From an uncultured Treponemataceae bacterium (GTDB lineage Bacteria > Spirochaetota > Spirochaetia > Treponematales > UBA12059): 64,000 bases of DNA. Numbering within the stretch: position 1 is the stretch's first letter; every line of letters starts with the position of its first letter. Positions 25,015-47,639 of the stretch are shown in pieces. The notes beneath the pieces are model-generated. The model ran no database searches and had not been told where the DNA came from. It saw only the letters and a list, made by a program, of their open reading frames with translations. A program made the translations under genes and the position numbers. The stretch lies in the NCBI GenBank assembly GCA_964485395.1, contig CAZAJF010000006.1, positions 41,195-105,194 of the forward strand. The letters are read 5' to 3'.

Positions 25015-26277
25015 ATGAATTCATTGAAATTTGAGACCTACTTCATGATGGAGCAGTATGTAAAAGAAAAGGTTGGCTTTTCCCCAAGTGCTGGTAAACC
25101 ATTATTGGTTGCTAAAGAGTTTCTAAAGCAATACAAAGACTATCTTGCCTGGAAAAAGTTTCCGCCCTTAACCGAGGCTGAAATTTCGGTTGCACATAAT
25201 CCCCGCTATGTGCATGGAATATTAGATTGTTCGATTGCAAACGGATTCAGCAACACTCTTGAATCGGTCGCAAAATCGTTACCATACACTACTGGCAGTT
25301 TCTATTATGCATCGTTATCTGCTCTAAAAAACAATTCAGTGACCATCTCGCTTACCTCTGGTTTTCATCATGCCTGTTATAATAATAGTGGTGGCTTCTG
25401 TACCTTCAATGCGCTCATGATCGCGTCAATTCTGCTTAAAAACAAAGGATTGCTTAAGAAAGAAGGTGTTGGAATCATTGATTTCGACATGCACTATGGC
25501 AATGGAACCGATGACATCATAAAGGAACTAAAAATCAGCTATGTTAAGCATCTTGGCACTGCAGATATAACGATCAAAGATGATGCTATTGATGAACCCG
25601 ATCTGTTAAAAAAACTTGAACCACTTAAGAAATGTGACATTTTATTTTATCAAGCAGGTGCGGATATTCATATTGACGATCCACTTGGCGGGAAACTGAC
25701 AACCGAGCAAATGAAACAGAGAGATAGGCTTATATTCCAATTTGCCAAAGATAATCAACTGCCTTTAGTGTGGAACCTTGCTGGCGGTTATCAAAAGCCT
25801 ATTGAAATTGTGATACAGCTACATGTGAACACTCTGAAAGAGTGTATAAATGTTTTTGAAGAGGGTCTCAGTAGGAATGGGACAATATCCTTAATTCAAG
25901 CTTCCAAGGTAAAAAAACAATTAGAACAATCATTCCCGCTAATAATCAGACTATTTCCCCCAAACATAATCTATATTGAGCCAACAGGATTTCTAGCGAC
26001 TGAAAATTTAGAAGTCCTTGATGATAAACTTATGCGAATAGATAATATCGAAAACTCAAATATTATTTTCAGCTTCAAAAATTTAAAATCTACGAGATCA
26101 AGTACAACTTGGGGATATCTATTTGACCTTACTAAGAACTTAGAGAAACGAAAAAAGAAGTTAATTCTTTGTGATATATTCCCATACCAATTAGAAGTAA
26201 TAAAAATGTTTGGATTTGAGTCAAAATTTGAAATTCATAATACTTGCAAAGAAGCAATAGAGGCAATAAATGGGTAG
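25015..26277 (+). CDS. Zn-dependent deacetylase (HDAC11-like layout) fused to a C-terminal STAS domain
   Basis: 420 aa, with AAGGAG upstream. The catalytic motifs are SGFHHA..GGFCTFN, IIDFDMHYGNGT, YQAGADIHIDDPLGG and LAGGYQK. The C-terminal ~120 aa has a STAS pattern (PTGFL..ENLEVLDDKL...KKLILCDIFPYQLEVIKMFGFESKFEIHNTCKEAIEAI). Confidence 0.8.
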   Translation: MNSLKFETYFMMEQYVKEKVGFSPSAGKPLLVAKEFLKQYKDYLAWKKFPPLTEAEISVAHNPRYVHGILDCSIANGFSNTLESVAKSLPYTTGSFYYASLSALKNNSVTISLTSGFHHACYNNSGGFCTFNALMIASILLKNKGLLKKEGVGIIDFDMHYGNGTDDIIKELKISYVKHLGTADITIKDDAIDEPDLLKKLEPLKKCDILFYQAGADIHIDDPLGGKLTTEQMKQRDRLIFQFAKDNQLPLVWNLAGGYQKPIEIVIQLHVNTLKECINVFEEGLSRNGTISLIQASKVKKQLEQSFPLIIRLFPPNIIYIEPTGFLATENLEVLDDKLMRIDNIENSNIIFSFKNLKSTRSSTTWGYLFDLTKNLEKRKKKLILCDIFPYQLEVIKMFGFESKFEIHNTCKEAIEAING

Positions 26278-26512
26278 TTTAAATCATGTCAATTTAAAGG
26301 AATTACCACATACCGCTTTGGTAGAAATCGAGTACAGTGATCCAGTATTTACTGACAAAAAATTATTGAAGCTCATTGAAACAGATTCCATGGGTTCAAC
26401 TTATGAATCTAATAACGGAGACAAGTCACATCCGGGCTGGCTCTGTCCTGTTTTCTTTTGGAATTTTCAAAAATCTCCAGAACTACTTGATGCAAGAATG
26501 GCAAAAGTATAA
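26270..26512 (+). CDS. Small protein of the WLCPV(F/L)F motif family (short paralogue)
   Basis: 80 aa ending in GSTYESNNGDKSHPGWLCPVFFWNFQKSPELL. It overlaps the upstream gene by 8 nt and the downstream gene by 1 nt (TAATG). Confidence 0.65.
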   Translation: MGSLNHVNLKELPHTALVEIEYSDPVFTDKKLLKLIETDSMGSTYESNNGDKSHPGWLCPVFFWNFQKSPELLDARMAKV

Positions 26513-27318
26513 TGAAAATATTATTCTCAAGTGACTTACATGGCGAAATAGATGCATATAAGAAATTTTCCAAACTTCTAAAATCGTATGACTGTGGTGT
26601 TTTAGCTGGGGACTTGATGGATGAAATGATCTCGCTAAGAGATGCGGAAAGCTATGGGTTAATAAATCCAGAAGAGCCGGAAGAATTACTTGGGGCAGAG
26701 GAAAATGACTTAGATGTATTCACTAAGCGATATCATGACTCATTGCACGACGTAAACTCCGTAAATAGAAAAGGGTTGGAAATAAAGAAAAATATAATAA
26801 TTGATATTTTAAATCACTCAAAAAAACCCATATTTTATATAACTGGAAATCACGATATTGCGAATTGGATAGATCAAGGGAATTTATTAAATATTGAGTT
26901 AAAAAAAGTAATATTTATGAATACATCCTTTGTTGGATACAGCCCTACTAACCTTAGATCACCTGAATCAGAACAACGATCCTTTCTTGCAAATCTTATT
27001 CCATTAGTGGATAAAAATACAATATTGGTTTCCCATTCACCTCCATATGGGATTTTAGATACAAATATGTCAAACGAGAACATCGGCAGCAGAGCACTAA
27101 GGGATTTTATTAAACAAACCAATCCAATGATAAATTTATTTGGCCATGTGCATGAAAGATTCGGACGCACCGGGAACTTTATTAACGGCAGTTGGTTTTT
27201 AAGCAAAAAATTCGTCTCAATCAATACAACTACAAGTAGGATAAGATATATAAATGCAAATAATATATTTTTCAACAATAACATTACTAATAAAAATGCC
27301 ACAAAGAAAAGATCATGA
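26512..27318 (+). CDS. Calcineurin-like metallophosphoesterase
   Basis: Motifs SDLHG, AGDL, ITGNHD, SHSPP and FGHVHE. It is a close paralogue of 43509..44279. Confidence 0.85.
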   Translation: MKILFSSDLHGEIDAYKKFSKLLKSYDCGVLAGDLMDEMISLRDAESYGLINPEEPEELLGAEENDLDVFTKRYHDSLHDVNSVNRKGLEIKKNIIIDILNHSKKPIFYITGNHDIANWIDQGNLLNIELKKVIFMNTSFVGYSPTNLRSPESEQRSFLANLIPLVDKNTILVSHSPPYGILDTNMSNENIGSRALRDFIKQTNPMINLFGHVHERFGRTGNFINGSWFLSKKFVSINTTTSRIRYINANNIFFNNNITNKNATKKRS

Positions 27319-27527
27319 TAATTTGTAAAAATCGACAAAACCACATGCCCCTCCGGGAAATTAACCAGTCATCTTTCCAAGACATAGTATCAAATATATA
27401 TAGGCATTGCAGCGATACTATTACAAAGGAAGCATTATACGAAACCTTAAAAGATAAAGTCAAAATTGATCTAATAATATGGAGGTCAAACATTTATGAA
27501 ACAAAACAAAGCTTTCTATTTCCATGA
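27315..27527 (+). CDS. Hypothetical small protein
   Basis: 70-aa ORF with an ATGA overlap to the upstream stop. It overlaps the next gene by 32 nt, and no motif was recognised. It may be spurious. Confidence 0.3.
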   Translation: MIICKNRQNHMPLREINQSSFQDIVSNIYRHCSDTITKEALYETLKDKVKIDLIIWRSNIYETKQSFLFP

Positions 27528-28500
27528 AGAAGTATTCAGTTTATCGATACCAGAAGAAAAAATTGAGTTTATTGGTCGATCTCTTCCGCATTTTCGAAAC
27601 ATTGCCCATCAGCTCTCAAAAAACTATACCATGCATAATCTTAGTCTTAGACGTGAAAATATTTCCGAATATCTAAGAGTACACAGTAAAGATTATCTTG
27701 ATTCTATACTTATGAAGCAAGCTGGTGAGAATGTATCACTAAAAATAAACTGCGAATGTTCAGGTCTGGAATACGCCATTCCCGGATTTGAATATACCCT
27801 CGGTGGTTTATATCAAGCCATAGATTTTGTCAAACAAGATTACAACAGCAGAGTATTTTGTTCAACACTACCCGGACACCATTCATATGCAGATCATGGA
27901 CATGGGTACTGTTTATTAAACCCAATGTCCGTCGCTGTTAGAAAAGCACAACAGGAGGGTTTTAAGAATATCCTAATCATTGATTGGGATTTACATCATG
28001 GCGATGGAACGCAAAGTATTTTTGCCTATGATAATTCTGTATATCAGATTAGTATCCATAGTGCCATAGACTTGTATATGAGCATGATGCGAATCTGGGA
28101 GCAAGGAACCACAGAGTTTGCACAAAGCATCGGGCATTGCAATATTCCTGTTCTTGATGCTTTGTATGATGAAAAGTTTATTAAAGAAGTTGAGTTCAAG
28201 GGGGAGTATTATAGAGCAGATAGTTGCAAGGAGCAATTTTCCAAAAAACTTAATAATTTGCCATTTAAGCCAGAATTGATTTTTATTTTCTCAGGCTTTG
28301 ATTCACATATTGATGATTGTGGTAAAAATATCACCGACTGGACTGATTTTGATTATGAATTGCTGACAAAGGCTGTTGTAGATATCGCTAAAAAGCATAA
28401 CTGTCCTATAATTTCGACCACAGGCGGAGGATATAATGTCGCATCAAGCCTAAGTGCCGCAAAGCACCATATTAATACCTTAATGAACTATAAGGCGTAA
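27496..28500 (+). CDS. Histone-deacetylase-family Zn-dependent deacetylase (class II / acetylpolyamine amidohydrolase-like)
   Basis: Motifs PGHHSYADHGHGYCLLN, IIDWDLHHGDGTQ, GFDSHIDD and TGGGYN. GGAGG lies upstream. Confidence 0.85.
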   Translation: MKQNKAFYFHEEVFSLSIPEEKIEFIGRSLPHFRNIAHQLSKNYTMHNLSLRRENISEYLRVHSKDYLDSILMKQAGENVSLKINCECSGLEYAIPGFEYTLGGLYQAIDFVKQDYNSRVFCSTLPGHHSYADHGHGYCLLNPMSVAVRKAQQEGFKNILIIDWDLHHGDGTQSIFAYDNSVYQISIHSAIDLYMSMMRIWEQGTTEFAQSIGHCNIPVLDALYDEKFIKEVEFKGEYYRADSCKEQFSKKLNNLPFKPELIFIFSGFDSHIDDCGKNITDWTDFDYELLTKAVVDIAKKHNCPIISTTGGGYNVASSLSAAKHHINTLMNYKA

Positions 28501-28596
28501 TGGCGTTATTTAAGCTTATTAGAATGATTTATTGCGAACACTAAACAAACAACGACAGTAAATTAGTTTTGAACAAATATCTATAAGGGAGATGTC

Positions 28597-29670
28597 ATGG
28601 ATAGAATAAGTGGGTGTATTTTTGGAGGTGCTGTAGGTGATGCTTTAGGCGCACCTCTTGAATTTTATAAAAAATATGACATCTCCACACTTTTCGGCAT
28701 TGATAAAGTAATTAAGAATATATTAGTAAAGCACCCTCAATTAGAAATTACCGATGATACTCAGATGTCGTTATATACCATGGAAGGCTTAAATAGAGAT
28801 TATTCTATTAAAAATATGCTGCATTCCTACCATAGATGGCTAGTAACCCAAAAGCACATTTTTAATCAGACTGAGAATTCAATCTATAACAATCTATCAA
28901 CAGAGGAAATAGCTAAGATAATATCAAATAGTAGTTTGATTAAATCTAAAAAACTATACAAAATTCGTTCTCCCGGAAACACCTGTTTAGAGGCACTATC
29001 GACTGGCAGGATTCAAACAGTTGAATTGATATTAAATGATAGTAAAGGTTGCGGGGGTGTGATGCGAGTTGCACCAGTCGGTTTCTTTTTTAATGATGCA
29101 AATTCGGTATACATAAACGCTTGCGATATTGCTTTATTAACACATGGACATCCTTCTGGATATATACCCGCTGGTATTTTAGCAACTATTATTTATTATA
29201 TTAATAACAATGAATCTTTGGTGGGGAGCATCACAAAAGCTATGGATATAGCCTACACGCACAATGGAGATGAAACCAAAGAATCTTTTTATTGCATTAC
29301 TAGTGCGATAAAACTAGCACTTAAGGGTAAAGTTAATTCAAGGGAAACTGAAGATTCCATTAGATCGGTATATTCAGAAAACAATGCAAAGTATTATACT
29401 CCAAAATCAAGAGGAATTGGATGGATTGCTCCTGAAGCCTTAGCATACGCGATATATTGTTCGTTAATTTATAATGGCGATTTTTTAAACTCTATCGAAA
29501 CTGCAATCAATCATTCAGGAGACAGCGATAGTATTGGTGCTATATGTGGAAATATATTAGGGGCATACTTGGGACGAGAGAATATTAATTGTGAACATAT
29601 AATAAATGTCATTGATGAAAAGGACATTATAGAATCCTCAATCAAACTATTTAAGCAAGAATTAAAATAA
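28597..29670 (+). CDS. ADP-ribosylglycohydrolase (ARH/DraG family)
   Basis: Motifs GGAVGDALGAPLEF, ITDDTQMSLYT, GNTCLEAL and HSGDSDSIGAICGNILGAYLG. Confidence 0.85.
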   Translation: MDRISGCIFGGAVGDALGAPLEFYKKYDISTLFGIDKVIKNILVKHPQLEITDDTQMSLYTMEGLNRDYSIKNMLHSYHRWLVTQKHIFNQTENSIYNNLSTEEIAKIISNSSLIKSKKLYKIRSPGNTCLEALSTGRIQTVELILNDSKGCGGVMRVAPVGFFFNDANSVYINACDIALLTHGHPSGYIPAGILATIIYYINNNESLVGSITKAMDIAYTHNGDETKESFYCITSAIKLALKGKVNSRETEDSIRSVYSENNAKYYTPKSRGIGWIAPEALAYAIYCSLIYNGDFLNSIETAINHSGDSDSIGAICGNILGAYLGRENINCEHIINVIDEKDIIESSIKLFKQELK

Positions 29671-29784: not shown

Positions 29785-29871
29785 ATGACTAAATCCTTTA
29801 GACTCGTAAAAATCAAGAATACCAGGGGGCAATCTACAAGTAAATTAACTCTATCTGAAAGCATTGAATAG
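29785..29871 (+). pseudogene. Truncated duplicate of the 5' end of the gene at 30756
   Basis: MTKSFRLVKIKN... compares with MAKSFKLVKIKK.... The first ~45 nt are about 80% identical, then the sequences diverge and a stop follows. Confidence 0.4.
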
Positions 29872-29933: not shown

Positions 29934-30302
29934 ATGAATATTTTCATAAAGACCAAACTTGATTTGTATGCATTCGCAAAACGATTGGCGAAGCATATGG
30001 GCGAAAAAACAGAATTGGCTACTTTATATCGGGAAGATTATTTTACGCTTATAGACAGCAGGATTGAAATATCTCCTTCGGATGATGATAGGGTTGCAGA
30101 TTACACACAAGAACTATCAAATTTCGATAATGCCACCCCTGGATATATTTTCAAATTAATGACATATTTAATAGATAAGTATGACTCCTTTGTGATTCCG
30201 GGGATACGCACCAGTGGTTTAATGTTAAATTATAATAAATCTAATTTCCCCAAAAGTCCAACAGAAATGTTGGAACTGATTTCACCATTATTAAAAAAGT
30301 GA
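29934..30302 (+). CDS. Hypothetical protein
   Basis: 122 aa with GGAGGTGG upstream. No motif recognised. Confidence 0.5.
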   Translation: MNIFIKTKLDLYAFAKRLAKHMGEKTELATLYREDYFTLIDSRIEISPSDDDRVADYTQELSNFDNATPGYIFKLMTYLIDKYDSFVIPGIRTSGLMLNYNKSNFPKSPTEMLELISPLLKK

Positions 30303-30755: not shown

Positions 30756-31130
30756 ATGGCTAAATCCTTCAAACTTGTTAAAATCAAGAAAATCATGTGG
30801 GCAACTTACAAGGAAATTAACACTACCCCATGGTATAAAGATCGAAACCAAGATTTTTTCATGATTTCATTTTTTGACATTCTCAACTCCTTTTATCCAG
30901 AAAATGCCCATGTTGTTAATTTAACTATATCAGATGAAGCCATATCCGATTACGATTTGAAGTTAACAAAGTCTACAGGCAATATATATGTCGACGAAGA
31001 TAATAAATCACATACCATGAGTGAAAGAGAATTAATGAAGTTTTTGGGAACAGTTCCACCTGTTATGTACATTGCCGTTCAATTAGATTCAAGAGGCAAG
31101 AAATTAACCGAAAAAATAATAGAGAAATAA
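30756..31130 (+). CDS. Hypothetical protein
   Basis: 124 aa with AGGAG upstream. The stop is 2 nt before the next ATG. Confidence 0.5.
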   Translation: MAKSFKLVKIKKIMWATYKEINTTPWYKDRNQDFFMISFFDILNSFYPENAHVVNLTISDEAISDYDLKLTKSTGNIYVDEDNKSHTMSERELMKFLGTVPPVMYIAVQLDSRGKKLTEKIIEK

Positions 31131-31132: not shown

Positions 31133-31723
31133 ATGATTACAAAGGCAATCTTTATAGGTGATGTTCACGGTGAGTTTCAAAGACTAGAACAAATCATCTG
31201 TTTCAATAAAAATAATCTTCCAATGTTTTGTACAGGAGACATTCCAATATCTGCCATCAATGGTGAGGCAGATGACAGTATAGAAAAATGCATAAAACTC
31301 TTAAAAGAAAACAGTGTCGCTACAGTAAAAGGCAACCATGATAGTTGGCTAAATAAAGATTTCGACTTTATATCAAAGCTTCCATTAACACTTGATATAG
31401 CTACATCGGCAGGAAAAGCACTTTTCTGTCATGGCATTGGCAACAATTACATGAGTAAAATCAATCCCGATGACTATGGTTATGCGATTGAGTCTAATGA
31501 CGATTTACATAATATCATTAAAAGCAAAGACTACAAGTTCATCATAAATGGACATTCGCATAAAAAAATGATTAAAAAAGTTAGCAATATTGTAATAATA
31601 AATGCAGGATCGTTAAAACATGATCCCGGCTTTATTATTGCTGATTTTTTATACAAATCTGTAACGTTTTTAAAATTTTCTGATTTGGAAATATCCATCG
31701 AGAAATCAGAAAGTTTAGAATGA
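31133..31723 (+). CDS. Small metallophosphoesterase (YfcE/MJ0936-like)
   Basis: Motifs GDVHG, TGDI, KGNHDSW, CHG and NGHSHKK. Confidence 0.8.
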   Translation: MITKAIFIGDVHGEFQRLEQIICFNKNNLPMFCTGDIPISAINGEADDSIEKCIKLLKENSVATVKGNHDSWLNKDFDFISKLPLTLDIATSAGKALFCHGIGNNYMSKINPDDYGYAIESNDDLHNIIKSKDYKFIINGHSHKKMIKKVSNIVIINAGSLKHDPGFIIADFLYKSVTFLKFSDLEISIEKSESLE

Positions 31724-31859
31724 AGAAGAATAGGTATCGTTACGAATTAAAGATGAAATTATTGTGGTAGAAAAAATTATTGATTTCTTAAAATTGCATG
31801 ATTGCTTTAAGTAGTGTAATAACTGAACTAAGGGATCAATATTTGACAGGAGGTTGAAT

Positions 31860-32573
31860 ATGTATAATAACATTATCATCTTAACAGGAGCCGGTGTCTC
31901 TAAAGCATCTGGTGTCAGAACCTTTAGAGGGACTGGAGGACTCTGGAATGATCCAGAAAATGAAAAATATTCTAAAAGCGAGCTATTCAAACAAGAGCCC
32001 TTGTTGATTTGGCAGTTTTTTGGAAAAATGAGAAAAGAAATCCAAAATGTAAAACCAAATGATGCTCATTATGCATTAGCAAAACTGGAAAATCATGCTC
32101 CTTCAAATTTTTTATTGCTTACTCAAAATATAGATGGGCTACATCAAAAAGCAGGAAGTAAAAATCTTATTGAACTACATGGCAATATTTTTACTACAAA
32201 GTGTTCAAATCCAGAGTGTAATTTTAAAAAACCTGAAGATTATGACACATACGAAGAACACATTCCTATATGTGGCTTATGTGGATCAAATTTAAGACCT
32301 GCAATTGTATTATTTGGAGAATATTTAGATACTTTTAATGAGCATCGAACTAAGGTTGCACTAAGAGATTGTGATTTATTTGTTTCAGTTGGAACATCTG
32401 GGACGGTAGCTCCAGCTTCTAATTTTGTCAGAGGTGCAGAATATGCAGGGGCTGAAACCATATTTATCAATACAGAACCTACAGATAATACATATTTTCA
32501 AAAACAGATTATCGGAAATGCAGAAGATGTATTGCCAAAATTTGTATTGGAAATCACAAAACAGGAGGTATAA
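31860..32573 (+). CDS. cobB: Sir2-family NAD-dependent protein deacylase (CobB-like sirtuin)
   Basis: Motifs GAGVSKASGVRTFRG.GGLW, TQNIDGLH and the catalytic ELHGN. The Zn ribbon is CSNPEC...CGLCGS, followed by VGTSGTV. AGGAGG lies 6 nt before the ATG at 31860. Confidence 0.85.
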   Translation: MYNNIIILTGAGVSKASGVRTFRGTGGLWNDPENEKYSKSELFKQEPLLIWQFFGKMRKEIQNVKPNDAHYALAKLENHAPSNFLLLTQNIDGLHQKAGSKNLIELHGNIFTTKCSNPECNFKKPEDYDTYEEHIPICGLCGSNLRPAIVLFGEYLDTFNEHRTKVALRDCDLFVSVGTSGTVAPASNFVRGAEYAGAETIFINTEPTDNTYFQKQIIGNAEDVLPKFVLEITKQEV

Positions 32574-32580: not shown

Positions 32581-33426
32581 ATGAAAGTGTTTTACAACAA
32601 TAATCAAGTCGCTATATACAATACAGGAAATTTCTGTAGAAATTCAGAAAAACCAATGCTTCTTGTTAAGGCACTTCTAAGCAATCCTTCAATTCAAATA
32701 ATCTCCGATTGGAATCCACTAACTCCCGAGGAGATTTCTGTTTCTCATGACAGAAAGCATGTTGACAGTATTCTAAATTACACAGAGAATAATGGATATG
32801 GCAACACCGATATGCAACTTACCGATGCAACTCCTTGGGAGTTGGAGAGTTTCTATCATGCAGCGTGTGAAGCTTTTGTTTCAAAAACTGTTACATTGTC
32901 ACCTTCTGCGGGATTCCATCATGCAGATTATTATGAAAGCTGGAATTTCTGTACCTTTAATGGACTGACTATCACAGCGATTTTGCTTAAAAATGAGTTT
33001 AATCCGGATAAAATTGGTATAATTGATTTTGATTGTCATTGGGGAAATGGAACGGATTCAATTATTGAAAAATTAAATTTATCATATGTAACCCATTACA
33101 CATTTGGTAAATTCAAAAGAATCATTCGAAAAGGCATTGGGTTTGACCAGTGGCTGGCTGATTTACCAGCAATACTTGAAGATAAATTTTCAAGTTCCGA
33201 TATTATCTTCTACCAAGCCGGGGCGGATGCACATATAGATGACCACTTTGGCGGCGAACTTTCCACAGAGCAAATGATACTTCGTGATAAAATTGTTTTT
33301 GAATTTGCAAAAAGTAGCAATATTCCACTAGTATGGAATTTAGCGGGAGGTTATCAAGAACCTTTAGATAAGGTGATACTATTACATCTGAACACGCTTA
33401 AAGAATGTATTGCCGTTTTTGAGTAA
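32581..33426 (+). CDS. Zn-dependent deacetylase (HDAC11-like layout), paralogue of the 25015 N-terminal domain
   Basis: Motifs AGFHHA, IIDFDCHWGNGT, YQAGADAHIDDHFGG and LAGGYQE. ATG at 32581 is 7 nt after the sirtuin stop, so the ORF-track start at 32425 is rejected. Confidence 0.8.
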   Translation: MKVFYNNNQVAIYNTGNFCRNSEKPMLLVKALLSNPSIQIISDWNPLTPEEISVSHDRKHVDSILNYTENNGYGNTDMQLTDATPWELESFYHAACEAFVSKTVTLSPSAGFHHADYYESWNFCTFNGLTITAILLKNEFNPDKIGIIDFDCHWGNGTDSIIEKLNLSYVTHYTFGKFKRIIRKGIGFDQWLADLPAILEDKFSSSDIIFYQAGADAHIDDHFGGELSTEQMILRDKIVFEFAKSSNIPLVWNLAGGYQEPLDKVILLHLNTLKECIAVFE

Positions 33427-33804: not shown

Positions 33805-34350
33805 TTAATTTGAAGCAAATGGTGAATGCCTATTCGGGTACCAATCAGAATATTTCGTTTTACTGGTATATGTTTTCTCTAACCAACTACTTACCCATGA
33901 AAGCGGATAAAGCCATCTAAAATCATCTTCTATCAATAGTTCTAACAGTGGACTTGTCTCATGACAACTACTGCTTATGTTTCCTAGTTTTCGGTCATTT
34001 TCCTTTTTTATACTCATTATTTTATATGCATTTTCTTCTGGGTTCACGTAAAAATCATGAAAAACTGATCGTATTTCTTTCGCAATCTGAATATCATGAC
34101 CTATTTGATCGGATTTAATCAGAACAAAAACAAACAATATCTTTTCCAATTTTTCTTTTATAATATTATTTGATACATAATGTAAGAAATATTTCTCGCC
34201 AGGATTAACATATTTAATACCTTGTCTTTGTGATTTATCAAATATATATTTTTGATTGTTTATATCTTCAATTCCAAATATAATCTCATCATTACAGGAA
34301 AAATAAAAAAGCAACACTTGCTCTGGGTTTGTCAAATTAGTAATTATCAT
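33805..34350 (-). CDS. Hypothetical protein
   Basis: 181 aa with GGGGGA upstream. No motif recognised. Confidence 0.5.
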   Translation of the reverse strand: MIITNLTNPEQVLLFYFSCNDEIIFGIEDINNQKYIFDKSQRQGIKYVNPGEKYFLHYVSNNIIKEKLEKILFVFVLIKSDQIGHDIQIAKEIRSVFHDFYVNPEENAYKIMSIKKENDRKLGNISSSCHETSPLLELLIEDDFRWLYPLSWVSSWLEKTYTSKTKYSDWYPNRHSPFASN

Positions 34351-39932: not shown

Positions 39933-40783
39933 ATGAAATCTGAGTTCGATAAAAACTATAATACTATAATGCTAAACGCCAACTACTTAAATAACAAAAT
40001 TGCTGAAACTAATTATTTTGGGGAAGAAAATAAAATTTTCCTAAAACTTACGAATACTAATCATGATTTTATTGATTTCGAAATTATTTTTCATATAATA
40101 CACGATTTATTTGGAACAAAGTCAATCTAGCTTTTTGGAAGAGCATAAATGAGATTCAGAAAAATTTAGAAAAAAATATTGGGAAATCGATTAGTAAAAG
40201 TATTGTAATAATTGAATACTATACCGATAAAAAGAAATCAAAGAGTTTAATTTTGAAAATCAAGCGTCTTTATGACCTAATAATCGAATCAAAATCTGGA
40301 AAAGACTTTCTGACTTGATTCTACAATAATAGGAAACTGGATACTGTTCTTAGGTTAGAAAACGATCGTTTCAATATTTACAATGTCAAATTCCATTTGA
40401 TGATATTGGATATTAAGCGATTAATAATAATTAATGATTTAGAGGGACATGCATTTGGGGATAAGCTCATTATCAAAATTAGTATTATAATTAAGGAGTT
40501 ATGCTCAAATATTGATTACATATTTAGATATGGCGGAGATGAGTTTGTCATACTAATTCCCCATAAAGAGGAATCTCAGGTTAAGGAAATGGCTGAAAAA
40601 ATCCTTGAAAAGGTAAGAAAATTATCGACAGCCCAATATGGAGTAGCATTAAGTATAGGAATTTCAAACACAAATGAAAAAACAAAGAATCTTACCGAAC
40701 TTTTAGAAAGAGCAGATATTGCAATATACACTGCAAGCAATAAAGCCACTATGAGTAATGGAATTATAGAGTGGGCATTTTAG
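39933..40783 (+). pseudogene. GGDEF-domain (diguanylate cyclase) gene disrupted by a frameshift and an in-frame TGA
   Basis: The open part 40397..40783 carries NDLEGHAFGDKL and RYGGDEFVIL. Upstream in the same frame, KDFLT*FYNNRKL replaces the D.LTGL.NRR motif, with TGA at 40316 at the Gly position. Further upstream the frame switches to ORF 39933..40130. Confidence 0.65.
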
Positions 40784-40892
40784 TTAAGTATTTTTTGAAA
40801 CTTAGGCGATACAGCTTCTTACTTGGACATTTAGGACACTAGGGTTGCTTAAAAGTTAATCGATATAGATGATTTACGATGAAGGAGTAATT

Positions 40893-41585
40893 ATGAATAC
40901 TAGAATTGGATTGATTGCTATGTCGCTGTTCATTCTCGGCAGCACTCTAATTACGCAAGAGAGCCTGAGCGATCAGGTGACAACCTACTACTTTCAGACA
41001 GTGAATCTTTCAAGAGATGGTAATATCAGAATTGAGGTTACCCCAGAGAGTCAGCAAAAAAGGGACGGGAAGGTAGTTGTCGGCGTCCGATTTGATATAG
41101 TTAAAGACAACGTGCTTGATCCAGTATTCACCGTCGGAACAGTGGGTTCTGGCGAGAATATGGATACGGCATTTCGAACCGCCCTAGCTGAATGGATGTT
41201 CTTTTTCGGGGACCCATTTAAGAACTACACCAACAAAATTGATGCCAAGCAATTCAATGACTACGACCTATTTTTCTCAGGAAAGAAAGCACAAGGAGAG
41301 CAGTCAGACCGGCTATCTACCTTCATAATCCCTGACGAACAGTGGAATGCACAACTTACCCGCCTGATTCAAGACGATCAATTATTCAAAAAAGGAGCTG
41401 TTAATACTTCAATGATTCTTGTCATTGTTCAGAACGGAAAATTCGTCGGGGAATGTAGAATCAATGGAGTAGTAAGCACAAGTTTCTTAAACAGTATTGA
41501 GAAAAGTGGATTGTTCATTACCCTCGATTCAATTACTAGCCTTCTCGTTAAACAATATATAATTATTGCACCTAGGCGAAATTAA
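40893..41585 (+). CDS. Hypothetical secreted protein
   Basis: AAGGAG lies before the ATG at 40893. The signal peptide is MNTRIGLIAMSLFILGSTLI. Confidence 0.5.
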   Translation: MNTRIGLIAMSLFILGSTLITQESLSDQVTTYYFQTVNLSRDGNIRIEVTPESQQKRDGKVVVGVRFDIVKDNVLDPVFTVGTVGSGENMDTAFRTALAEWMFFFGDPFKNYTNKIDAKQFNDYDLFFSGKKAQGEQSDRLSTFIIPDEQWNAQLTRLIQDDQLFKKGAVNTSMILVIVQNGKFVGECRINGVVSTSFLNSIEKSGLFITLDSITSLLVKQYIIIAPRRN

Positions 41586-41864: not shown

Positions 41865-42296
41865 ATGAATATGGTAAACTACAAGATTCTAAGAATCAGA
41901 ATGCGTATTCGAAGGGCATTATCTTCTATAATCCCTTTCCTTGCAAAGACGACAAAAATATTCAAGAAACCAATAGTGAAAGCATATAAGGATTCTGAAG
42001 GTTGGTTTATTTCTGATTCAAATGGATTTTCCAAAGCTCAAAACCAACTTATTGGAGGAGTTCCCGAGCTTATCGAACACTTTGTTGGCGCTTCGACTAA
42101 GATAATGATTAAATATAGCTCAGTAAAATTTCAAGATGCCATTACCTGTGATCTGATTGAAACCAGACCAAGTGGTTCAACGTATCGATATCACGAGGGC
42201 AATGTTGACTATAAATTTTGGCTTTGCCCTGTCTTCTTTTGGTATTTCAAGAATCCTCCGAAAACTCTATTTGTGTTAATAGTTGACGACTGCTAG
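41865..42296 (+). CDS. WLCPV(F/L)F motif family protein
   Basis: 143 aa with EGWFISDSNGF...GGVPELIEHFV...GSTYRYHEGNVDYKFWLCPVFFWYFKNPPKTLFV. Confidence 0.65.
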   Translation: MNMVNYKILRIRMRIRRALSSIIPFLAKTTKIFKKPIVKAYKDSEGWFISDSNGFSKAQNQLIGGVPELIEHFVGASTKIMIKYSSVKFQDAITCDLIETRPSGSTYRYHEGNVDYKFWLCPVFFWYFKNPPKTLFVLIVDDC

Positions 42297-42471: not shown

Positions 42472-42849
42472 ATGACTGAAAATAAATACAGTTTAAAATG
42501 CATTACCACTGCTTATAAACTGATCAATCATCCAGAAATTGCCTTGTTAAAGATAGTAGGTTCATTAGACTTATTTTCTAAAGGAAACTGGTTTAGCAGA
42601 ATCGAAAAACTAAGCAAAGTTGGCTATAAAAAAATTATACTCGATTGCAATGAAACTTTTGTTTACGATCATATTGATCCATTTTTCACTAACCTTAAAT
42701 TTCCTAAAGATAGCAATCTTTGTTTTGTTATTTATGCCAAAAAAGAATCGACAATAGTCAAGAATTACTATGATGGGATTCTTGGTGGAATGTTAAATTT
42801 CGTACTTGGATCAATGCAAGAGTGCATAGGTTACTTAAATAAATACTAA
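42472..42849 (+). CDS. STAS-like single-domain protein (tentative)
   Basis: 125 aa. LLKIVGSLDLFS...GYKKIILDCNETFVYDHID...LCFVIY...SMQECIGYL follows the SpoIIAA/STAS pattern only loosely. Confidence 0.4.
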   Translation: MTENKYSLKCITTAYKLINHPEIALLKIVGSLDLFSKGNWFSRIEKLSKVGYKKIILDCNETFVYDHIDPFFTNLKFPKDSNLCFVIYAKKESTIVKNYYDGILGGMLNFVLGSMQECIGYLNKY

Positions 42850-42986: not shown

Positions 42987-43316
42987 ATGAAAGCACGACA
43001 AACTCTAATAGCAGTATTATTAGGGGTTATTACAGGTTATATAATTTGTTTCGCAGTATTTCTTGGATTTTTATTCCTAAATACTATCACTGCTGTTGAC
43101 CTCAATACATTGGTTTGGACATTTTATTTATTACTTATTTTGATATTGATCCCTATTGTTATTCTGTTTATTAAGAATGCGAGAAGTAAAAAAACAACAT
43201 TTGCGAATGTTTATTGGCTGTCTTCTATTGCTTTTTCATTAATTGCTGGGATTACCGGGATTACATTACCAATAGTTGATTTATTTTTAATAGTTGCGAT
43301 AAACAAAATATTATGA
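42987..43316 (+). CDS. Small integral membrane protein (3 predicted TM segments)
   Basis: 109 aa with three long hydrophobic stretches. GAGGAG lies upstream. Confidence 0.55.
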   Translation: MKARQTLIAVLLGVITGYIICFAVFLGFLFLNTITAVDLNTLVWTFYLLLILILIPIVILFIKNARSKKTTFANVYWLSSIAFSLIAGITGITLPIVDLFLIVAINKIL

Positions 43317-43508: not shown

Positions 43509-44279
43509 ATGAAAATCTTATTCACAACCGACATCCATGGTGATATGGAGACATATCAAGCCTTCTCAGAAAAATTGAAGGACTTCGACATTGGTATCAT
43601 TGCTGGTGACTTGATGGAAGAATTCCTGTCACCTAATGATGCTATCGCATTTGGCTTGAAAGACAAAGAACTAATCGAAGAATTGCATGGCGAGGAATTT
43701 GACGAAGTTGTTGAAATGGATAAAGCCATAAAAAATGCACTCCATAACAAGAATTCAACAAATAGAAAAGGATTGGAAATTAAGAGAAAAAAAATAATAG
43801 AGACTCTCGAAATCGCACAGCGACCAATATACTACATTCGCGGTAACCATGATATTGCCGATTGGGGTGATACAAAATATATAAAAAATATTGAAAACAA
43901 GAAAATAGATTTAGGAACAATAAGTCTATTTGGTTTGAAAGAAGATTTTAGATTGGCAGTAAGCCAATTTAGGTATTCAAGTAAAATAGCAAATTGCATT
44001 GATAAGGGTACAATTTTAGTTTGTCATTCTCCACCATATAAAATAATGGATATTACGAAAATGGTGCGAAGGAGGGATCATAAAGTAGTCCTTACACATG
44101 TTGGAAGTAAAAATATTCTTAAAATAGTAAACAAAAAGCATCCCCTGTTTTGCCTTTGCGGTCATGTACACCAAGGAATAGGTATTAACGGTAACATCAT
44201 TAATGGGGGATGTTACAGGCATAAGAAATTTGCAAGCATCGATACAGAAAAAAGCAAAGCAGAATTTATCAACTGGTAA
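43509..44279 (+). CDS. Calcineurin-like metallophosphoesterase
   Basis: Motifs TDIHG, AGDL, RGNHD, CHSPP and CGHVHQ. It shares the insert ...NSTNRKGLEIKRKKII... with 26512..27318. Confidence 0.85.
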   Translation: MKILFTTDIHGDMETYQAFSEKLKDFDIGIIAGDLMEEFLSPNDAIAFGLKDKELIEELHGEEFDEVVEMDKAIKNALHNKNSTNRKGLEIKRKKIIETLEIAQRPIYYIRGNHDIADWGDTKYIKNIENKKIDLGTISLFGLKEDFRLAVSQFRYSSKIANCIDKGTILVCHSPPYKIMDITKMVRRRDHKVVLTHVGSKNILKIVNKKHPLFCLCGHVHQGIGINGNIINGGCYRHKKFASIDTEKSKAEFINW

Positions 44280-44599
44280 GGCTTTAAGATTGTCCTAAGA
44301 TTGGCATTAACTGAAAATAGTTATGTTACGATTATTTACTTTTGTTTTCTTAATTCATACTAAAGCAGCTTTGATGTTAAAATTATATATGGCAGGCTTG
44401 ATCAATCAATGGTAATATAAAAACAAAAAATGTTTTAGTATTACCCAAGAATGGTGCTTTTACAGATTCTGTTTTTTCTTAGTTGTGTAGATCAGCAAAA
44501 TTCATATCCAAAACAATAATGGGTGATACACTATCAGTTTGAATAGTCATTTATGAATTGATTGAATTAGTGTTGGATTGAACTATATATGAGGTGCAT

Positions 44600-45340
44600 A
44601 TGTCCATATTTGCTATTGGTGATATTCATGGATGTTTTGACTTATTAGATAAAGGGTTTGAAGTAATCAAAAACCGCGCATCTCTAAATGATAAAATAGT
44701 CCTCCTAGGGGACATAATTGATTCTGGCAGTGATACAAAAAAGTGTATCGATCTAATACTTGAAATGAGTCAAAAATATGAAGTAATCGCAGTCAAGGGA
44801 AATCATGAAGAATGGATGCTACAAACAAAAGATGATTATACCAGTCACTCATGGATAATTAGTATGGATGGATTAAAAACCATTAAAAGCTATTCTGAAA
44901 GTGTAGAAGAAGAATTGAAAAGTGAATTAAAAGCAAATGGAATTGCAATAGTAAATGATCACGTACCAATATCGTATGATAAATTTTTCAAGGTGTTACC
45001 AAAAGCACATTTGGATTTCATAGAAAACATGAGAGACTATTACATTGAAGGAAACTACATATTCGTTCACGCAGGGATATCAACAGAATATAAAGATCTT
45101 GACAAAATGGATAGGCACAACATGAGATGGGGATTTGAAGGATTTCCGGAAAAATACCACGGAAATAAAATAGTTGTATATGGTCACTGGAGCAATAAAG
45201 CAGTAATAAACGGCAACCAAGTGATTACATATCAATCCAATAACACTATCTGTATAGACACCCAAAAACATAACGTGCTTACAATATTTATAGCTCCAGA
45301 AAATAAAATAGTGCAAATTACGCCTAAAAAGCAAATCTAA
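44600..45340 (+). CDS. PPP-family Ser/Thr phosphatase-like metallophosphoesterase
   Basis: Motifs GDIHG, GDIIDSG (Arg of DRG replaced), GNHE, VHAG and YGHW. ATG at 44600 follows GAGG. Confidence 0.8.
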   Translation: MSIFAIGDIHGCFDLLDKGFEVIKNRASLNDKIVLLGDIIDSGSDTKKCIDLILEMSQKYEVIAVKGNHEEWMLQTKDDYTSHSWIISMDGLKTIKSYSESVEEELKSELKANGIAIVNDHVPISYDKFFKVLPKAHLDFIENMRDYYIEGNYIFVHAGISTEYKDLDKMDRHNMRWGFEGFPEKYHGNKIVVYGHWSNKAVINGNQVITYQSNNTICIDTQKHNVLTIFIAPENKIVQITPKKQI

Positions 45341-45448
45341 TAAGTTTTAAATCTGTTATTTTAAAGCCATCCCAGTTTAGCAAACATAAGATTGACGCCT
45401 CAACTAAAAGCGAATATAATCTTATTTCAGAGAAAACCAGGAGCATAT

Positions 45449-45922
45449 ATGCAATATCGAGTTCATATTAAAAGGTTTGGCAATGGATTTTGGTCATTTC
45501 ATACCCCGAGATTTGCATATCCTCAACTTCCAGAACGATCAATATTTGACAATGCGCTCGTTGCAGGAATAGATGACATGTTGTTGGAATATGAAAAGAA
45601 ATATGGAAAATTTGATGTGATTTTCAGTGACACCAAGATTGATTGTGAAAATATCGATTTTATGAAATTGACGTGGGTTCGCGGGGATCGGTATGATTCT
45701 CAAAAAGGTGGCAATTGGTATGCTAATTCCGAAAATAAAATCGGATGGCTTTGCCCTGTTTTATTTGATTATTTTAACCCCTGCCCTGAAAATATTTTCA
45801 TATTTTTAGTAAAATACCAGCAAACCAAAGATAGCAGGCTTACAATAAAACAACTCTTCGAAGAATTGAAAACCAAGTTACTTAAGAATAGCGTTGGATT
45901 TTTAGAATCTGTGGAAGAGTAA
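45449..45922 (+). CDS. WLCPV(F/L)F motif family protein
   Basis: Contains GGNWYANSENKIGWLCPVLFDYFNPCPENIFIF. ATG at 45449 follows CCAGGAG. Confidence 0.65.
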   Translation: MQYRVHIKRFGNGFWSFHTPRFAYPQLPERSIFDNALVAGIDDMLLEYEKKYGKFDVIFSDTKIDCENIDFMKLTWVRGDRYDSQKGGNWYANSENKIGWLCPVLFDYFNPCPENIFIFLVKYQQTKDSRLTIKQLFEELKTKLLKNSVGFLESVEE

Positions 45923-46029
45923 AAGTTAATAATACTATTTGAACCTGAGATTAAATATGGGAAAATTTGTCTGAAGGCATTGAATTATAGGCCATGTTCG
46001 AGGAAATACTTTTAAATTATGGAGATTAG

Positions 46030-46767
46030 ATGAATCCCTCTTATCCAAGCATTAAACAAGCGCTATTTTTACTATTTTGCATAGTGACAATACAGACAAT
46101 AATTGGTGTATTTATAACGGGTTTACTTCAAGCTCTCAATCATGAAATAAATAATTCCGCTTTAGCCGGCTTTGCTGATACGATTACACTAGGGTTGATT
46201 ATTTTTAATGCTCAAAAATACTATGAATACAGCTTTAGCAAACTATATTCATTTAAGCTATTTAACCCTTTATATTTAATTCCTATAATTCTTGTTACTT
46301 GTGGGTTTTCTATATTACTATCCGAGTTAAATAATGTCATACAATTTTTCGTTCCTATTCCACCTATGTGGAGAGAGATATTTACTTCAGTTGGCAGCAC
46401 TAAATCTGGAATGATACCTTCTATCCTGACTCTTTCTATTATTGCTCCACTAACTGAAGAGTTATTATTTCAAGGATTATTTCTGAAAAGCTTTCTAACT
46501 AAAATGACAAAATCGAATGCTATTGTATTATCTTCGCTTTTATTTGCAATTCTTCATTTAAATCTCTGGCAATTTGCAGGAGCATTTTTAATGGGAATAT
46601 TATTGGCAAATATGTATATTGAGTTCAAATCCCTTTTGCCATGCTTGATCGTACATAGTATATATAATTTTCTACCAACATTATCCAGAGATATTCTTAG
46701 TATTAACATTTCTGGATACTCTTCACATACTCAATCATCACAATTTCAAACAATTCGTTTGACTTAA
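46030..46767 (+). CDS. CPBP-family intramembrane glutamic protease (CAAX protease / Abi)
   Basis: Multi-TM protein with motifs APLTEELLFQG, FAILH and HSIYNF. Confidence 0.8.
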   Translation: MNPSYPSIKQALFLLFCIVTIQTIIGVFITGLLQALNHEINNSALAGFADTITLGLIIFNAQKYYEYSFSKLYSFKLFNPLYLIPIILVTCGFSILLSELNNVIQFFVPIPPMWREIFTSVGSTKSGMIPSILTLSIIAPLTEELLFQGLFLKSFLTKMTKSNAIVLSSLLFAILHLNLWQFAGAFLMGILLANMYIEFKSLLPCLIVHSIYNFLPTLSRDILSINISGYSSHTQSSQFQTIRLT

Positions 46768-46848
46768 TTGAGGTGATATTGATCTTAGCATCTGTTCTTT
46801 CCTATATATTTTTTGAGAAGTTAACTGTAAAATTTAGGAGGACTTAAA

Positions 46849-47253
46849 TTGGCAGTTTCAGTTGAAGTAAAAATAGAAGAAGATAATATTCATTGTCTTT
46901 TAATAAGAATTAGCGGTGTATATAAATACGGATCAGAAGGAAATGAAGATGCTGGGTATTTAGGGAAAATGATTCAAATTGGCGAGATTATTGGAACTTG
47001 CAAAAAGAATGGGTTAAAAGGAATCATTGTTGATATGCAATCACTATCCTATTCTTGGGGTAATGGAATACATATCTTCCAATTTGAATTATTTCGAAAC
47101 ATAATTCCTATTGCATATGTTACTGGAGCGAAGTGCATCGAAGGCATAATGAGTCTGTCTAAATTATCAAATATCATGGGAAATATTGAGTCAGCTATCT
47201 TTCCATCCATGAAAGAAGCGGTTGAGTATATTAACAAAAGGAGTTTTTCATGA
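46849..47253 (+). CDS. STAS-like single-domain protein (tentative)
   Basis: TTG start 8 nt after AGGAGG. LLIRISGVY...LKGIIVDMQSLSYSWGNG...IAYVTGAKCIEGIMSL...SMKEAVEYI resembles STAS only loosely. Confidence 0.35.
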   Translation: MAVSVEVKIEEDNIHCLLIRISGVYKYGSEGNEDAGYLGKMIQIGEIIGTCKKNGLKGIIVDMQSLSYSWGNGIHIFQFELFRNIIPIAYVTGAKCIEGIMSLSKLSNIMGNIESAIFPSMKEAVEYINKRSFS

Positions 47254-47639
47254 TCCCAAACACAAAACTTCGAGCCGTATTTGACAAGACCAGCGGGCAT
47301 TGCCATTTCTGCGGCGATGGATTGGTTTTTGAAAAGTACGGTATAAAGGACATTAACGACCTTATGGGAGCATGGGAATCAGACCATGTAATCCAGCAAG
47401 GCAAGGGTGGTTCTAAAGATGACGAGAACTGTCTACCAACCTGTGTTCGATGCAACCGCCTTAGGTGGCATAGAGACGGAGACAATCTGCGGGAGTTATT
47501 ACTCCTTGGGCTTGTGGCATTCGATGAGGTTAAAAAGAAGACTACTACAGGGAAGAAGATTGAGGAACTAAAAACAAAGCGCCTTGAGGCTAATATCAAG
47601 AGGAGAAGAAGTTCGCCAAGTGAAGAGGCGGCAGAATAG
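47250..47639 (+). CDS. HNH endonuclease-domain protein
   Basis: Motifs GHCHFCG...WESDHVIQQGKGG...CVRCNRLRWH. It has an ATGA overlap with the upstream gene, and its GC is higher than the island average. Confidence 0.75.
   Translation: MIPNTKLRAVFDKTSGHCHFCGDGLVFEKYGIKDINDLMGAWESDHVIQQGKGGSKDDENCLPTCVRCNRLRWHRDGDNLRELLLLGLVAFDEVKKKTTTGKKIEELKTKRLEANIKRRRSSPSEEAAE

Follow-up and report, generated by a model that had tools for sequence, protein, structure and literature searches.

Hydrolase cargo of a decayed tRNA-linked genomic island in an uncultured Treponemataceae bacterium: possible writer-less NAD+/ADP-ribose conflict modules

Why a single AT-rich stretch of a spirochaete chromosome should carry so many hydrolases, and whether they act together, are questions raised by a locus of an uncultured Treponemataceae bacterium (contig CAZAJF010000006.1). 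The locus lies in a window of 64,000 nt, the whole stretch of DNA that was analysed, and forms an island whose cargo was compared with ~39 kb of flanks. The original prediction, made from the letters alone, held that 12 open reading frames (ORFs) of the island encode modification-removing enzymes. Pfam confirms 11 of them among ~30 island ORFs: three HDAC-fold enzymes, one CobB-like sirtuin, one ADP-ribosylglycohydrolase (ARH, called ARG in the cited literature) and six of the seven proposed metallophosphoesterases (MPEs). The twelfth, at 35205-35975(-), has to be withdrawn as an enzyme; it has no Pfam match, its likeness to the other MPEs is limited to the first ~38 residues, and every metal-binding motif is lost. 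We tentatively read the locus as a decayed mobile island that has accreted writer-less conflict modules centred on NAD+ and ADP-ribose, a reading that we regard as quite possible though short of probable.

The deacetylases named in the prediction match Hist_deacetyl (2.6e-25 for the gene at 25015, 8.3e-46 for 27496 and 5.5e-23 for 32581). The sirtuin, proposed to be canonical, matches SIR2 at 1.6e-44 (31854-32573(+)) and has the GAGxS motif, the catalytic His and the Zn ribbon, and the ARH (28597-29670(+)) matches ADP_ribosyl_GH (PF03747) at 4.5e-57. Metallophos matches are found for the genes at 26512, 31133, 34504(-), 39030, 43509 and 44594. By reading, the catalytic motifs of the Pfam-confirmed enzymes are intact, apart from a GNDD that replaces GNHD in 39030. 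No member of the island enzyme families is present in the 39 kb of flanks, and the binomial probability of at least six MPE genes among 30 is about 8e-9 at an assumed genome frequency of 0.5%, which is a generous background. The hydrolase enrichment is far beyond chance, and recent duplication is excluded as its source because island paralogues are only 24-48% identical in an all-against-all BLAST comparison.

The same comparison defines the families used below. HDAC-A comprises HDAC-A1 (25015-26277(+)) and HDAC-A2 (32581-33426(+)), which are 48% identical, and HDAC-B is the gene at 27496-28500(+). MPE-A comprises MPE-A1 (26512-27318(+)), MPE-A3 (39030-39794(+), the GNDD protein, in which the catalytic His of motif III is replaced) and MPE-A4 (43509-44279(+)), 30-42% identical among these three, together with the degenerate paralogue at 35205. 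MPE-B comprises MPE-B1 (34504-35166(-)) and MPE-B2 (44594-45340(+)), MPE-C is the gene at 31133-31723(+), and DUF6717 is encoded at 26270-26512(+), 41865-42296(+) and 45392-45922(+). HDAC-A1 is fused to a C-terminal STAS domain that scores 23.6 bits, just above the Pfam cut-off of 22.6.

None of the island enzymes attains a curated NCBIfam cut-off. The best PDB matches of HDAC-A1 and HDAC-A2 are 9GKV/9GKY (VcHdaH) and 9GZ5/9RJD (Leptospira HDAC11/B), entries identified through PMC13325672, and the HH, DxDxH, D and GGY motifs are invariant in the HDAC-A alignment (A5), which places both proteins in class IV (HDAC11-like). HDAC-B is nearest to the HDAC6-like enzymes of class IIb, and the best NCBIfam match of the sirtuin is a CobB-type deacylase family (229 bits against a cut-off of 243). 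The nearest solved relative of the Icc-like MPE-A proteins is MPPED2, a cyclic-nucleotide phosphodiesterase; MPE-C is YfcE-like, and MPE-B is nearest to ApaH, PrpE, Pnkp and lambda phosphatase. Since MPE-A and MPE-C thus have phosphodiesterases as nearest characterized relatives, and MPE-B has ApaH, Pnkp and lambda phosphatase, the earlier description of the cargo as erasers of protein modifications is interpretive: it is reasonable for the ARH, the sirtuin and HDAC-B, is unproven for the MPEs, whose substrates may be nucleotides rather than proteins, and is open for the class IV HDACs.

The prediction also held that no writers, nuclease toxins, or phage or conjugation genes could be recognized. 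Among the island ORFs, Pfam finds no acetyltransferase, kinase, ADP-ribosyltransferase or Fic protein, and Pfam and PHROG find no phage structural, replication or transfer gene, so that this part of the claim stands. The rest needs some correction, as the island holds an HNH endonuclease gene (47250-47639(+); Pfam 2e-6, PHROG 8e-9), a GGDEF gene truncated at its N-terminus, and two pseudogenes, one of a serine recombinase (resolvase) and one of a DSP-like phosphatase.

Is the segment foreign, as was proposed? GC content is 29-38% between 23.5 and 48.8 kb of the window and 52-64% in the flanks, and the mean is 32% for the ~25-kb island against ~57% for the host chromosome. ARAGORN and Rfam place tRNA-Met (CAT; 23411-23483(+)) and tRNA-Val (CAC; 48934-49008(-)) on either side. 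Direct repeats of ~305 nt begin 17 nt before the end of tRNA-Met, with a start-to-start distance of 25,035 nt. The left, attL-like copy (23467-23771) opens with the final 17 nt of tRNA-Met and runs through a terminator hairpin and spacer into a tRNA-Val fragment; the right, attR-like copy (48503-48806) opens with a 17-nt pseudo 3′ end of tRNA-Met, and the two are ~94% identical over a 280-nt core. The flanks hold ordinary chromosomal genes (RadA, MalQ, hybrid kinases, ProS), and the best matches of ProS, at 82-92% identity, place the host within the Spirochaetales. The contig of the closest relative (L191; ~79% nucleotide identity) is syntenic only from tRNA-Val onward and lacks the island, a comparison that rests on this one relative. 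We conclude with high confidence that the segment is a decayed integrative genomic island of ~25.0 kb, and the predicted horizontal acquisition is borne out by composition, tRNA genes, repeats and absence from the closest relative.

As in other tRNA-linked islands, the segment abuts a tRNA gene, its repeats begin in the tRNA 3′ end, its GC content is deviant, a close relative lacks it and a recombinase remnant is present. Unlike them, it has no tyrosine integrase or excisionase (Pfam, island ORFs and stop-free segments of both arms), and its repeat is unusually long. Searches by tblastn with the integrases of two cassette arrays (L007, L071) found no integrase remnant, and the left arm (23772-25014; GC ~0.40-0.44) has no recognizable gene and no detectable remnant of an integrase. 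The only recombinase trace is the resolvase pseudogene (37365-37735(-)), which is frameshifted. Because the repeat is long (~305 nt) and 6% diverged, a homologous single crossover is preferred over recombination at a short att core; the repeat fits the insertion of a circular element bearing the same spacer from a related spirochaete, not import from a distant low-GC donor. The island would thus have entered the tRNA-Met/tRNA-Val spacer, at the 3′ end of tRNA-Met, by a Campbell-type event that used the segment homologous to the spacer, any integrase having been lost since. The ~94% identity of the repeats, together with the Spirochaetota affiliation of the nearest MPE-A relatives, points to transfer within the lineage, and a single low-GC donor was rejected on these grounds.

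Several observations accompany the insertion site. An internal fragment of tRNA-Val (TGAACCAGTGACTTCTACCGTGTGAAGGT) is present in three extra copies (23724-23771, 48759-48806 and 48855-48902) around the repeats, which indicates that the tRNA-Met/tRNA-Val spacer has recombined repeatedly. In the closest relative, the DNA to the left of tRNA-Val (L191:1-6868), which encodes a PIF1-type helicase and a Tricorn_N protein, resembles neither the island nor the left flank of the window (1-23400); synteny between these close genomes therefore breaks on the tRNA-Val side. The resolvase pseudogene sits in a GC-richer patch, exactly at the switch of gene orientation within the island, and could be the trace of a past inversion or of a junction between two accreted pieces.

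Within the island, overlaps or gaps of at most 7 nt (at 26270/26277, 26512, 31130/31133, 32573/32581 and 47250/47253) define four mini-operons. In the first, HDAC-A1::STAS overlaps by 8 nt a DUF6717 gene that retains only the C-terminal half of the family, and the stop of the latter overlaps the start of MPE-A1, whose motifs are intact. HDAC-B, also with intact motifs, and the ARH follow. The second consists of a gene for a 124-aa protein of no family (30756-31130(+)) and, after a 2-nt gap, MPE-C. In the third the sirtuin is separated by 7 nt from HDAC-A2, and in the fourth a gene for a 134-aa protein of no family (46849-47253(+)) overlaps the HNH gene by 4 nt. Located at the island's right end, this last pair might form a nuclease module of two genes.

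Several of these linkages recur in independent contigs. The sirtuin and HDAC-A genes occur in the same order, overlapping, in L012, a Spirochaetaceae contig of 70% GC, and again in L094. A metagenome scan with HDAC-A gave 80 loci, and the proteins of one of them, L115, were then used as probes. In L115 the genes of an HDAC-A protein, a Metallophos protein and an ARG overlap stop to start, after genes for TY-Chap1/3, a cpYpsA SLOG protein, DUF3293 and a second HDAC-A; the island ARH is 31-33% identical to this ARG. The HDAC-A, MPE and ARG genes also occur in L116/118, interrupted by a DUF3293 gene on the opposite strand. Counted over independent locus groups, HDAC-A is found together with ARG three times, with a PPP-like MPE five times, with TY-Chap three times (L115, L102 and L124 are the related loci with TY-Chap) and with cpYpsA and DUF3293 twice each. 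The order MPE-A, DUF6717 is repeated in L004; MPE-A and MPE-B adjoin each other in L013 and belong to one integron in L071; and MPE-B2 is 52% identical to the product of the gene beside MPE-A in a contig of Marispirochaeta. Similarity to HDAC-A1 in L080-82 (43% over 356 aa) reaches past the HDAC domain, consistent with these loci carrying the same HDAC-A::STAS fusion.

The closest published parallel is the class of ARG-centric systems, which were predicted computationally to counter viral ADP-ribosylation (Iyer, Burroughs, Anantharaman & Aravind 2022, Viruses 14:1977; PMC9503650, section 3.8). In these systems an ADP-ribosylglycohydrolase without a coupled transferase is accompanied by rhodanese-phosphatase, calcineurin-like, HD or HAD phosphatases, with a phosphatase fused to or tightly beside the ARG in ~55% of systems; ~42% have a Nudix- or WYL-HTH negative regulator, and peptide-binding chaperones (vWA, SseB, TY-Chap1-3) and often nuclease effectors are further components (PMC9503650). 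The island is similar in that its ARH has the metal-site motifs and no adjacent ADP-ribosyltransferase gene, and in that calcineurin-like phosphatases are clustered with it (MPE-A lies two genes upstream and MPE-C three genes downstream, the directly adjoining gene being HDAC-B), a decayed gene of the rhodanese-phosphatase/DSP type is present and a nuclease lies nearby. It also shares the variable accreted modules and rapid divergence of the systems described. Its HDAC-fold enzymes, STAS domain, DUF6717 proteins and Icc-like MPE-A proteins fall outside that description (PMC9503650), and the sirtuin in the island is a further difference. In view of the ARG-centric prediction (PMC9503650), the earlier statement that no described system has this composition is true only in part. 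L115 fits well as a clear ARG-centric member that also has a class IV HDAC of the island's family, and the island itself resembles such systems and is probably built from modules of this type, without being filed as a full member. Relative to the ARG-centric description and to two papers on class IV HDACs, the recurrent triad of class IV HDAC, MPE and ARG, the sirtuin-class IV HDAC pair, the HDAC::STAS fusion and the MPE-A/DUF6717 pair are new; the searched parts of these two papers mention neither STAS fusion nor pairing with sirtuin, MPE or ARG.

On the reading of accreted conflict modules, the cargo would have been drawn from an AT-rich flexible gene pool of Spirochaetota, made up of integron cassettes and the cargo of mobilizable elements. 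Its units would be class IV HDAC::STAS with DUF6717 and MPE-A, then HDAC-B with the ARH; the 30756 gene with MPE-C, then the CobB-like sirtuin with a class IV HDAC; a series of DUF6717, STAS-like protein, MPE-A, MPE-B and DUF6717; and the 46849 gene with the HNH gene. These would be writer-less modules of the ARG-centric kind. The ARH could strip ADP-ribose from macromolecules modified by an enzyme of the invader, or hydrolyse O-acyl-ADP-ribose, and the calcineurin-like MPEs could degrade the released ADP-ribose or related nucleotide products. HDAC-fold enzymes of classes IV and IIb would, with the sirtuin, deacylate the same targets or small molecules, STAS and the beta-rich DUF6717 would serve as ligand-binding or regulatory partners, and the HNH protein is a possible back-up effector. 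Among functional readings, the antidote collection of the original prediction is the best supported and is plausible; it rests entirely on comparative context. Domain identities, conserved motifs, the anatomy of the island, recurrent linkages and the mobility of the families are established by the analysis, while the substrates, the defence role and the present-day activity proposed here are inferred.

Additional support for a role in conflict comes from PADLOC, in which MPE-A1 (1.6e-18) and MPE-A4 (1.9e-14) match the phage-defence candidate PDC-S10, although the match spans only the C-terminal half and PDC-S10 is a candidate family, mentioned once and not characterized in the sole paper that a full-text search listed. 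The occurrence of HDAC-A relatives in viral contigs and huge phages (below) also fits a role in conflict. A bolder version is conceivable, if somewhat doubtful: a conserved triad of class IV HDAC, PPP-like MPE and ARG, sometimes with a CobB-like sirtuin, would defend the cell by erasure, undoing rather than punishing modifications that enzymes of phages or mobile elements place on host proteins or nucleic acids, the spirochaete-specific MPE-A and DUF6717 would be a new cassette-borne defence or signal-degrading pair that spreads through integrons, and class IV HDACs would thereby gain a first physiological role, in NAD+/ADP-ribose conflicts. Were the conflict-module reading correct, the island would be a compact test case for the repair of invader-imposed modifications, so far proposed from comparative genomics only. 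It would add class IV HDAC, HDAC::STAS, Icc-like MPE-A and DUF6717 as candidate parts to the ARG-centric description and offer a handle on the substrates of bacterial class IV HDACs, in a setting where the same genes travel between integron cassettes, mobilizable elements and tRNA-linked islands of Spirochaetota. Should the functional reading fail, the locus would be no more than a common kind of decaying genomic island, with a cargo bias that is unusual yet can be explained.

A number of observations weigh against the conflict-module reading. Pfam, at E<=0.01, finds no Nudix, WYL or HTH regulator among the island ORFs, and no match to vWA, SseB or TY-Chap; for the 122-aa protein of no family at 29934-30302(+), the AF2 model (pLDDT 54.5) is too poor to be used for a fold check. 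No ADP-ribosyltransferase (ART) domain is present in the island ORFs; the sirtuin lies 2.2 kb downstream of the ARH on the same strand, with three genes between, and could itself be a writer or NAD+ consumer, so that the set is not strictly writer-less. Only MPE-A and, weakly, the HNH protein (mREase_IV) matched among 10 proteins in the PADLOC scan, while the HDAC, sirtuin, ARH, MPE-B and MPE-C proteins had no match. Elsewhere, the immediate same-strand neighbours of 84 non-redundant HDAC-A genes, pooled from the metagenome and viral sets, comprise 85 families among 114 ORFs and are mostly unrelated (the commonest are T4 gp19, a tail-tube-like protein, with 4, TY-Chap, Metallophos and HNH with 3 each and NUDIX with 2); the association of HDAC-A with such modules is thus recurrent and far from universal. 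Bacterial class IV HDACs, moreover, show little or no deacylase activity on peptides, that of VcHdaH being weak or absent, and the physiological substrates of VcHdaH and of Leptospira liHDAC11/B are not established, according to PMC13325672. Finally, the decay seen in the cargo suggests relaxed selection on part of it. Signs of it are found in the genes at 35205 and 39030, in the pseudogenes of the resolvase and the DSP-like phosphatase, in the fragments of GGDEF and DUF6717 genes and in the remnant at 29785, and with several cargo genes decayed the island is better seen as an accretion of small modules than as one intact machine.

The character of the sirtuin bears on a reading in which the genes serve endogenous regulation or NAD+ salvage. 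The sirtuin and HDACs would deacylate metabolic enzymes, the ARH and MPEs would clear O-acetyl-ADP-ribose and ADP-ribose, and the PPP-like phosphatases would act with STAS in a circuit resembling partner switching. Consistent with this, the sirtuin is CobB-like and matches no defence-type SIR2 profile of PADLOC, which sets it apart from the Thoeris, DSR and SIR2-HerA types. In Bacillus subtilis, both the HDAC-type AcuC and the sirtuin SrtN deacetylate acetyl-CoA synthetase. In L012 the sirtuin-HDAC-A pair adjoins MPE-A in a setting of housekeeping genes, 3 kb from a gene of the acyl-CoA-synthetase type, and O-acetyl-ADP-ribose, which sirtuins produce, is hydrolysed by enzymes of the ARH3 type (cited in PMC9503650). 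The STAS complement of the island is limited to the HDAC-A fusion and one weak singleton below the cut-off, and Pfam detects neither the HATPase_c kinase nor the PP2C of a partner-switching module; an anti-sigma factor and an acetyltransferase partner are likewise missing from the island. Fourfold MPE-A and threefold DUF6717 redundancy would be odd for housekeeping; moreover, the composition of the island is foreign, the nearest relative lacks it and part of it has decayed. An endogenous role is judged improbable.

The ARH, in turn, bears on a reading as a collection of orphan immunity genes, in which it and the other hydrolases would neutralize ADP-ribosylating, acylating or nucleotidylating effectors delivered by competing bacteria. 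The ARH-family protein Tri1 is the immunity protein to the ART toxin Tre1. The island protein shares the fold and binuclear-metal motifs of the DraT/DraG and Tre1/Tri1 systems, and is distant from DraG, Tri1 and ARH3: it has no cognate transferase gene and scores 66 bits against the NCBIfam cut-off of 337 for DraG and 42.9 against 490 for Tri1. A CPBP/Rce1-like intramembrane protease gene (46030-46767(+); Pfam, NCBIfam), of a family often linked to bacteriocin immunity, is present, and in a cassette array elsewhere an MPE-A homologue is accompanied by an Imm5-like cassette. By Pfam, the island has no Imm or SUKH/SMI1 family, toxin remnant, Rhs/CdiA fragment or secretion-system gene, and no rAID-type recombinase was found in it. 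As the ARH is an equivalog of neither Tri1 nor DraG, and as immunity families of polymorphic toxins were not seen, the case for immunity between bacteria is weak, and we regard this version as very unlikely.

Distribution among viruses bears on whether the cargo could instead serve the element or a phage. As counter-defence, it would degrade immune nucleotides of the host, such as cyclic ADP-ribose isomers and cyclic nucleotides, and reverse host ADP-ribosylation or acylation. Relatives of HDAC-A, 43-48% identical to those of the island, are present in 32 viral contigs (L159-L190, IMG/VR), including a giant-virus metagenome-assembled genome (MAG) and contigs of >100 kb, and remoter ones, at 26-36% identity, are encoded by huge uncultured phages and, as gp202, by Rhodococcus phage E3 (LR756511, HM114277). 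Their frequency in viral contigs and huge phages keeps the counter-defence reading alive. MPE-A, the nearest solved relative of which is MPPED2, is present in 3 viral contigs and in an integrative mobilizable element, a fusion of DUF6717 with an HD hydrolase of the alarmone type is known from one representative, and the island is itself the remnant of a mobile element. Set against this, no other island family occurs within 5 kb of the viral HDAC-A genes, MPE-A has no match among 50,697 cultured phage records, and the family that it does match is a defence candidate and not a known anti-defence family. With phage structural, replication and transfer genes missing from the island as well, counter-defence is hardly the likely function, and the cargo is better read as conflict modules of the ARG-centric kind.

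Where, then, did the cargo come from? A profile search with MPE-A found proteins 60-70% identical on long contigs, and the close MPE-A relatives in a one-genome-per-species scan all belong to the Spirochaetota. In L005 and L007-9, MPE-A homologues lie in arrays of small co-directional genes with canonical attC sites between them (R'' YTAACAA ... R' ATGTTAGR); it is to such cassettes that MPE-A4, itself intact, is 60-70% identical. The Spirochaetota MAG contig L071 has intI and, after it, at least 10 attC sites; MPE-A is among the cassettes of this array, the distal end of which holds an MPE-B homologue. In L018 an attC array with an MPE-A homologue occurs in Marispirochaeta. Homologues of two other island genes, the DSP-like gene at 36856 and the gene at 38125, are separate cassettes in L007, the array that also holds an MPE-A homologue. 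MPE-A also occurs outside integrons, in an element with integrase, relaxase and primase genes, adjoining DndB (L074/75). The outcome said to undermine the original prediction, in which homologues would be scattered housekeeping genes of one low-GC donor without linkage, is not what was found, as MPE-A is mobile in Spirochaetota and linkages recur. A preprint describes cassette arrays as a reservoir from which anti-phage systems are drawn (bioRxiv 10.1101/2024.07.02.601686), which is consistent with a cassette-borne MPE-A; it makes no mention of metallophosphoesterase, PDC, deacetylase or sirtuin.

Two features of the L007 array deserve note. Its attC sites (L007:980-15100; also L008 and L009) are decaying, with mutated R''/R' cores and scores of 27-81 bits against 105-124 in L005, and a tyrosine recombinase gene lies at its far end, convergent with the cassettes, unlike the usual integron layout. 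In another setting (L072:4122-18025, and L073), a distant MPE-A homologue directly follows a 1931-aa RHS-like protein and precedes a TP_0855-like protein, FliM and 1-2 STAS proteins, with two thymidylate-synthase-like genes nearby.

The island resembles the integron arrays of Spirochaetota in its mostly co-directional small genes, its 100-450-nt spacers and AT-rich cargo, and in sharing families with them (MPE-A, DSP-like and 38125 with L007; MPE-A and MPE-B with L071). In contrast to those arrays it has no intI, no attC and unstructured spacers. No intI was found next to the island array by Pfam on ORFs and arms or by tblastn with the L007 and L071 integrases. A covariance model (R1), built from 25 attC sites of L005 and L007, detects no attC site in the window (best match 17 bits, E=0.019), although it is specific to one attC family and misses the sites of L071. 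For this reason the exclusion of attC leans on a folding control, in which the first 130 nt after each island gene have a mean z of +0.42 (minimum -0.67), against a mean of -6.7 for true attC spacers. Repeat searches found no multi-copy repeat family in the island spacers. On these results the idea of the island as an integron or cassette array was rejected.

Descent from such a pool leads to the alternative of accretion without common function. The island would be a storehouse filled from the spirochaete cassette pool, its excess of hydrolases would mirror families expanded there (MPE-A, MPE-B, DUF6717 and class IV HDAC), and only two-gene units would be functional. MPE-A arrays elsewhere do hold very mixed cargo (GNATs, glyoxalase, kinase, MBL, DinB, Sel1 and Imm5-like proteins), the gene spacings of the island resemble those of cassettes, its pseudogenes and fragments are many, and HDAC-A neighbours elsewhere are mostly unrelated. 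Yet the combinations recur in contexts that are not cassettes, as in L115, in L116/118 and in the sirtuin-HDAC-A pair among the housekeeping genes of L012, the enrichment is extreme, and Pfam finds no GNAT, glyoxalase or other typical cassette filler in the island. Accretion of this kind is unlikely on balance, though it deserves serious consideration beside the conflict-module reading.

DUF6717, the partner of MPE-A in the first mini-operon, was recovered as a family only by an exhaustive profile search. This search, of 1.84 billion proteins, yielded 334 representatives; a word-indexed search recovered only 2 proteins, and the genome and viral scans recovered none. For the full-length protein at 41865, AF2 predicts with confidence (pLDDT 92) a long helix followed by a small beta-rich domain, and the model has no significant neighbour in the PDB; TOBE/Mop-type small barrels were the top matches, are weak (TM <=0.35) and are not usable as a fold assignment. 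The protein at 45392 has a C-terminal extension, and the fused representative mentioned above (P0138) joins DUF6717 to a RelA/SpoT-type HD domain (HD_4::DUF6717).

The remaining cargo consists largely of small or decayed genes. Between the ARH and the 122-aa gene lies a remnant of 28 codons (29785-29871(+)), found by repeat search and paralogous to the start of the 30756 gene (family D9); its DNA is 80% identical to 30756-30800, and it is what remains of a second copy of that gene, which stands before MPE-C. The genes on the minus strand include two for proteins of no family, of 181 aa (33805-34350(-)) and 154 aa (36075-36539(-)), and a pseudogene of a DSP/CX5R-type phosphatase with 3 in-frame stops (36541-37119(-)), the homologue of which is an integron cassette in L007. 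Beyond the strand switch, a putative lipoprotein (38125-38769(+)) is 29.5% identical to an L007 cassette protein. A GGDEF fragment (40397-40783(+); Pfam) begins only after the first ~35 positions of the profile, and no ORF is present in the 266 nt that precede it (window 40131-40783); it is probably a truncated diguanylate cyclase and the only writer-type domain of the island. It is followed by a DUF6348-like protein with an N-terminal hydrophobic segment (40869-41585(+), below the Pfam cut-off), and, after the second DUF6717 gene, by the weak STAS-like protein (42472-42849(+); 16.6 bits, below the Pfam cut-off) and a small membrane protein (42987-43316(+)). PHROGs gave no match for nine family-less island proteins, and exact-match look-up of island proteins returned only contigs of 1-2 kb from the same organism, which have no gene context. 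Outside the island, the window has two more dips in GC content, at 4001-5000 (0.44) and 56001-57000 (0.40).

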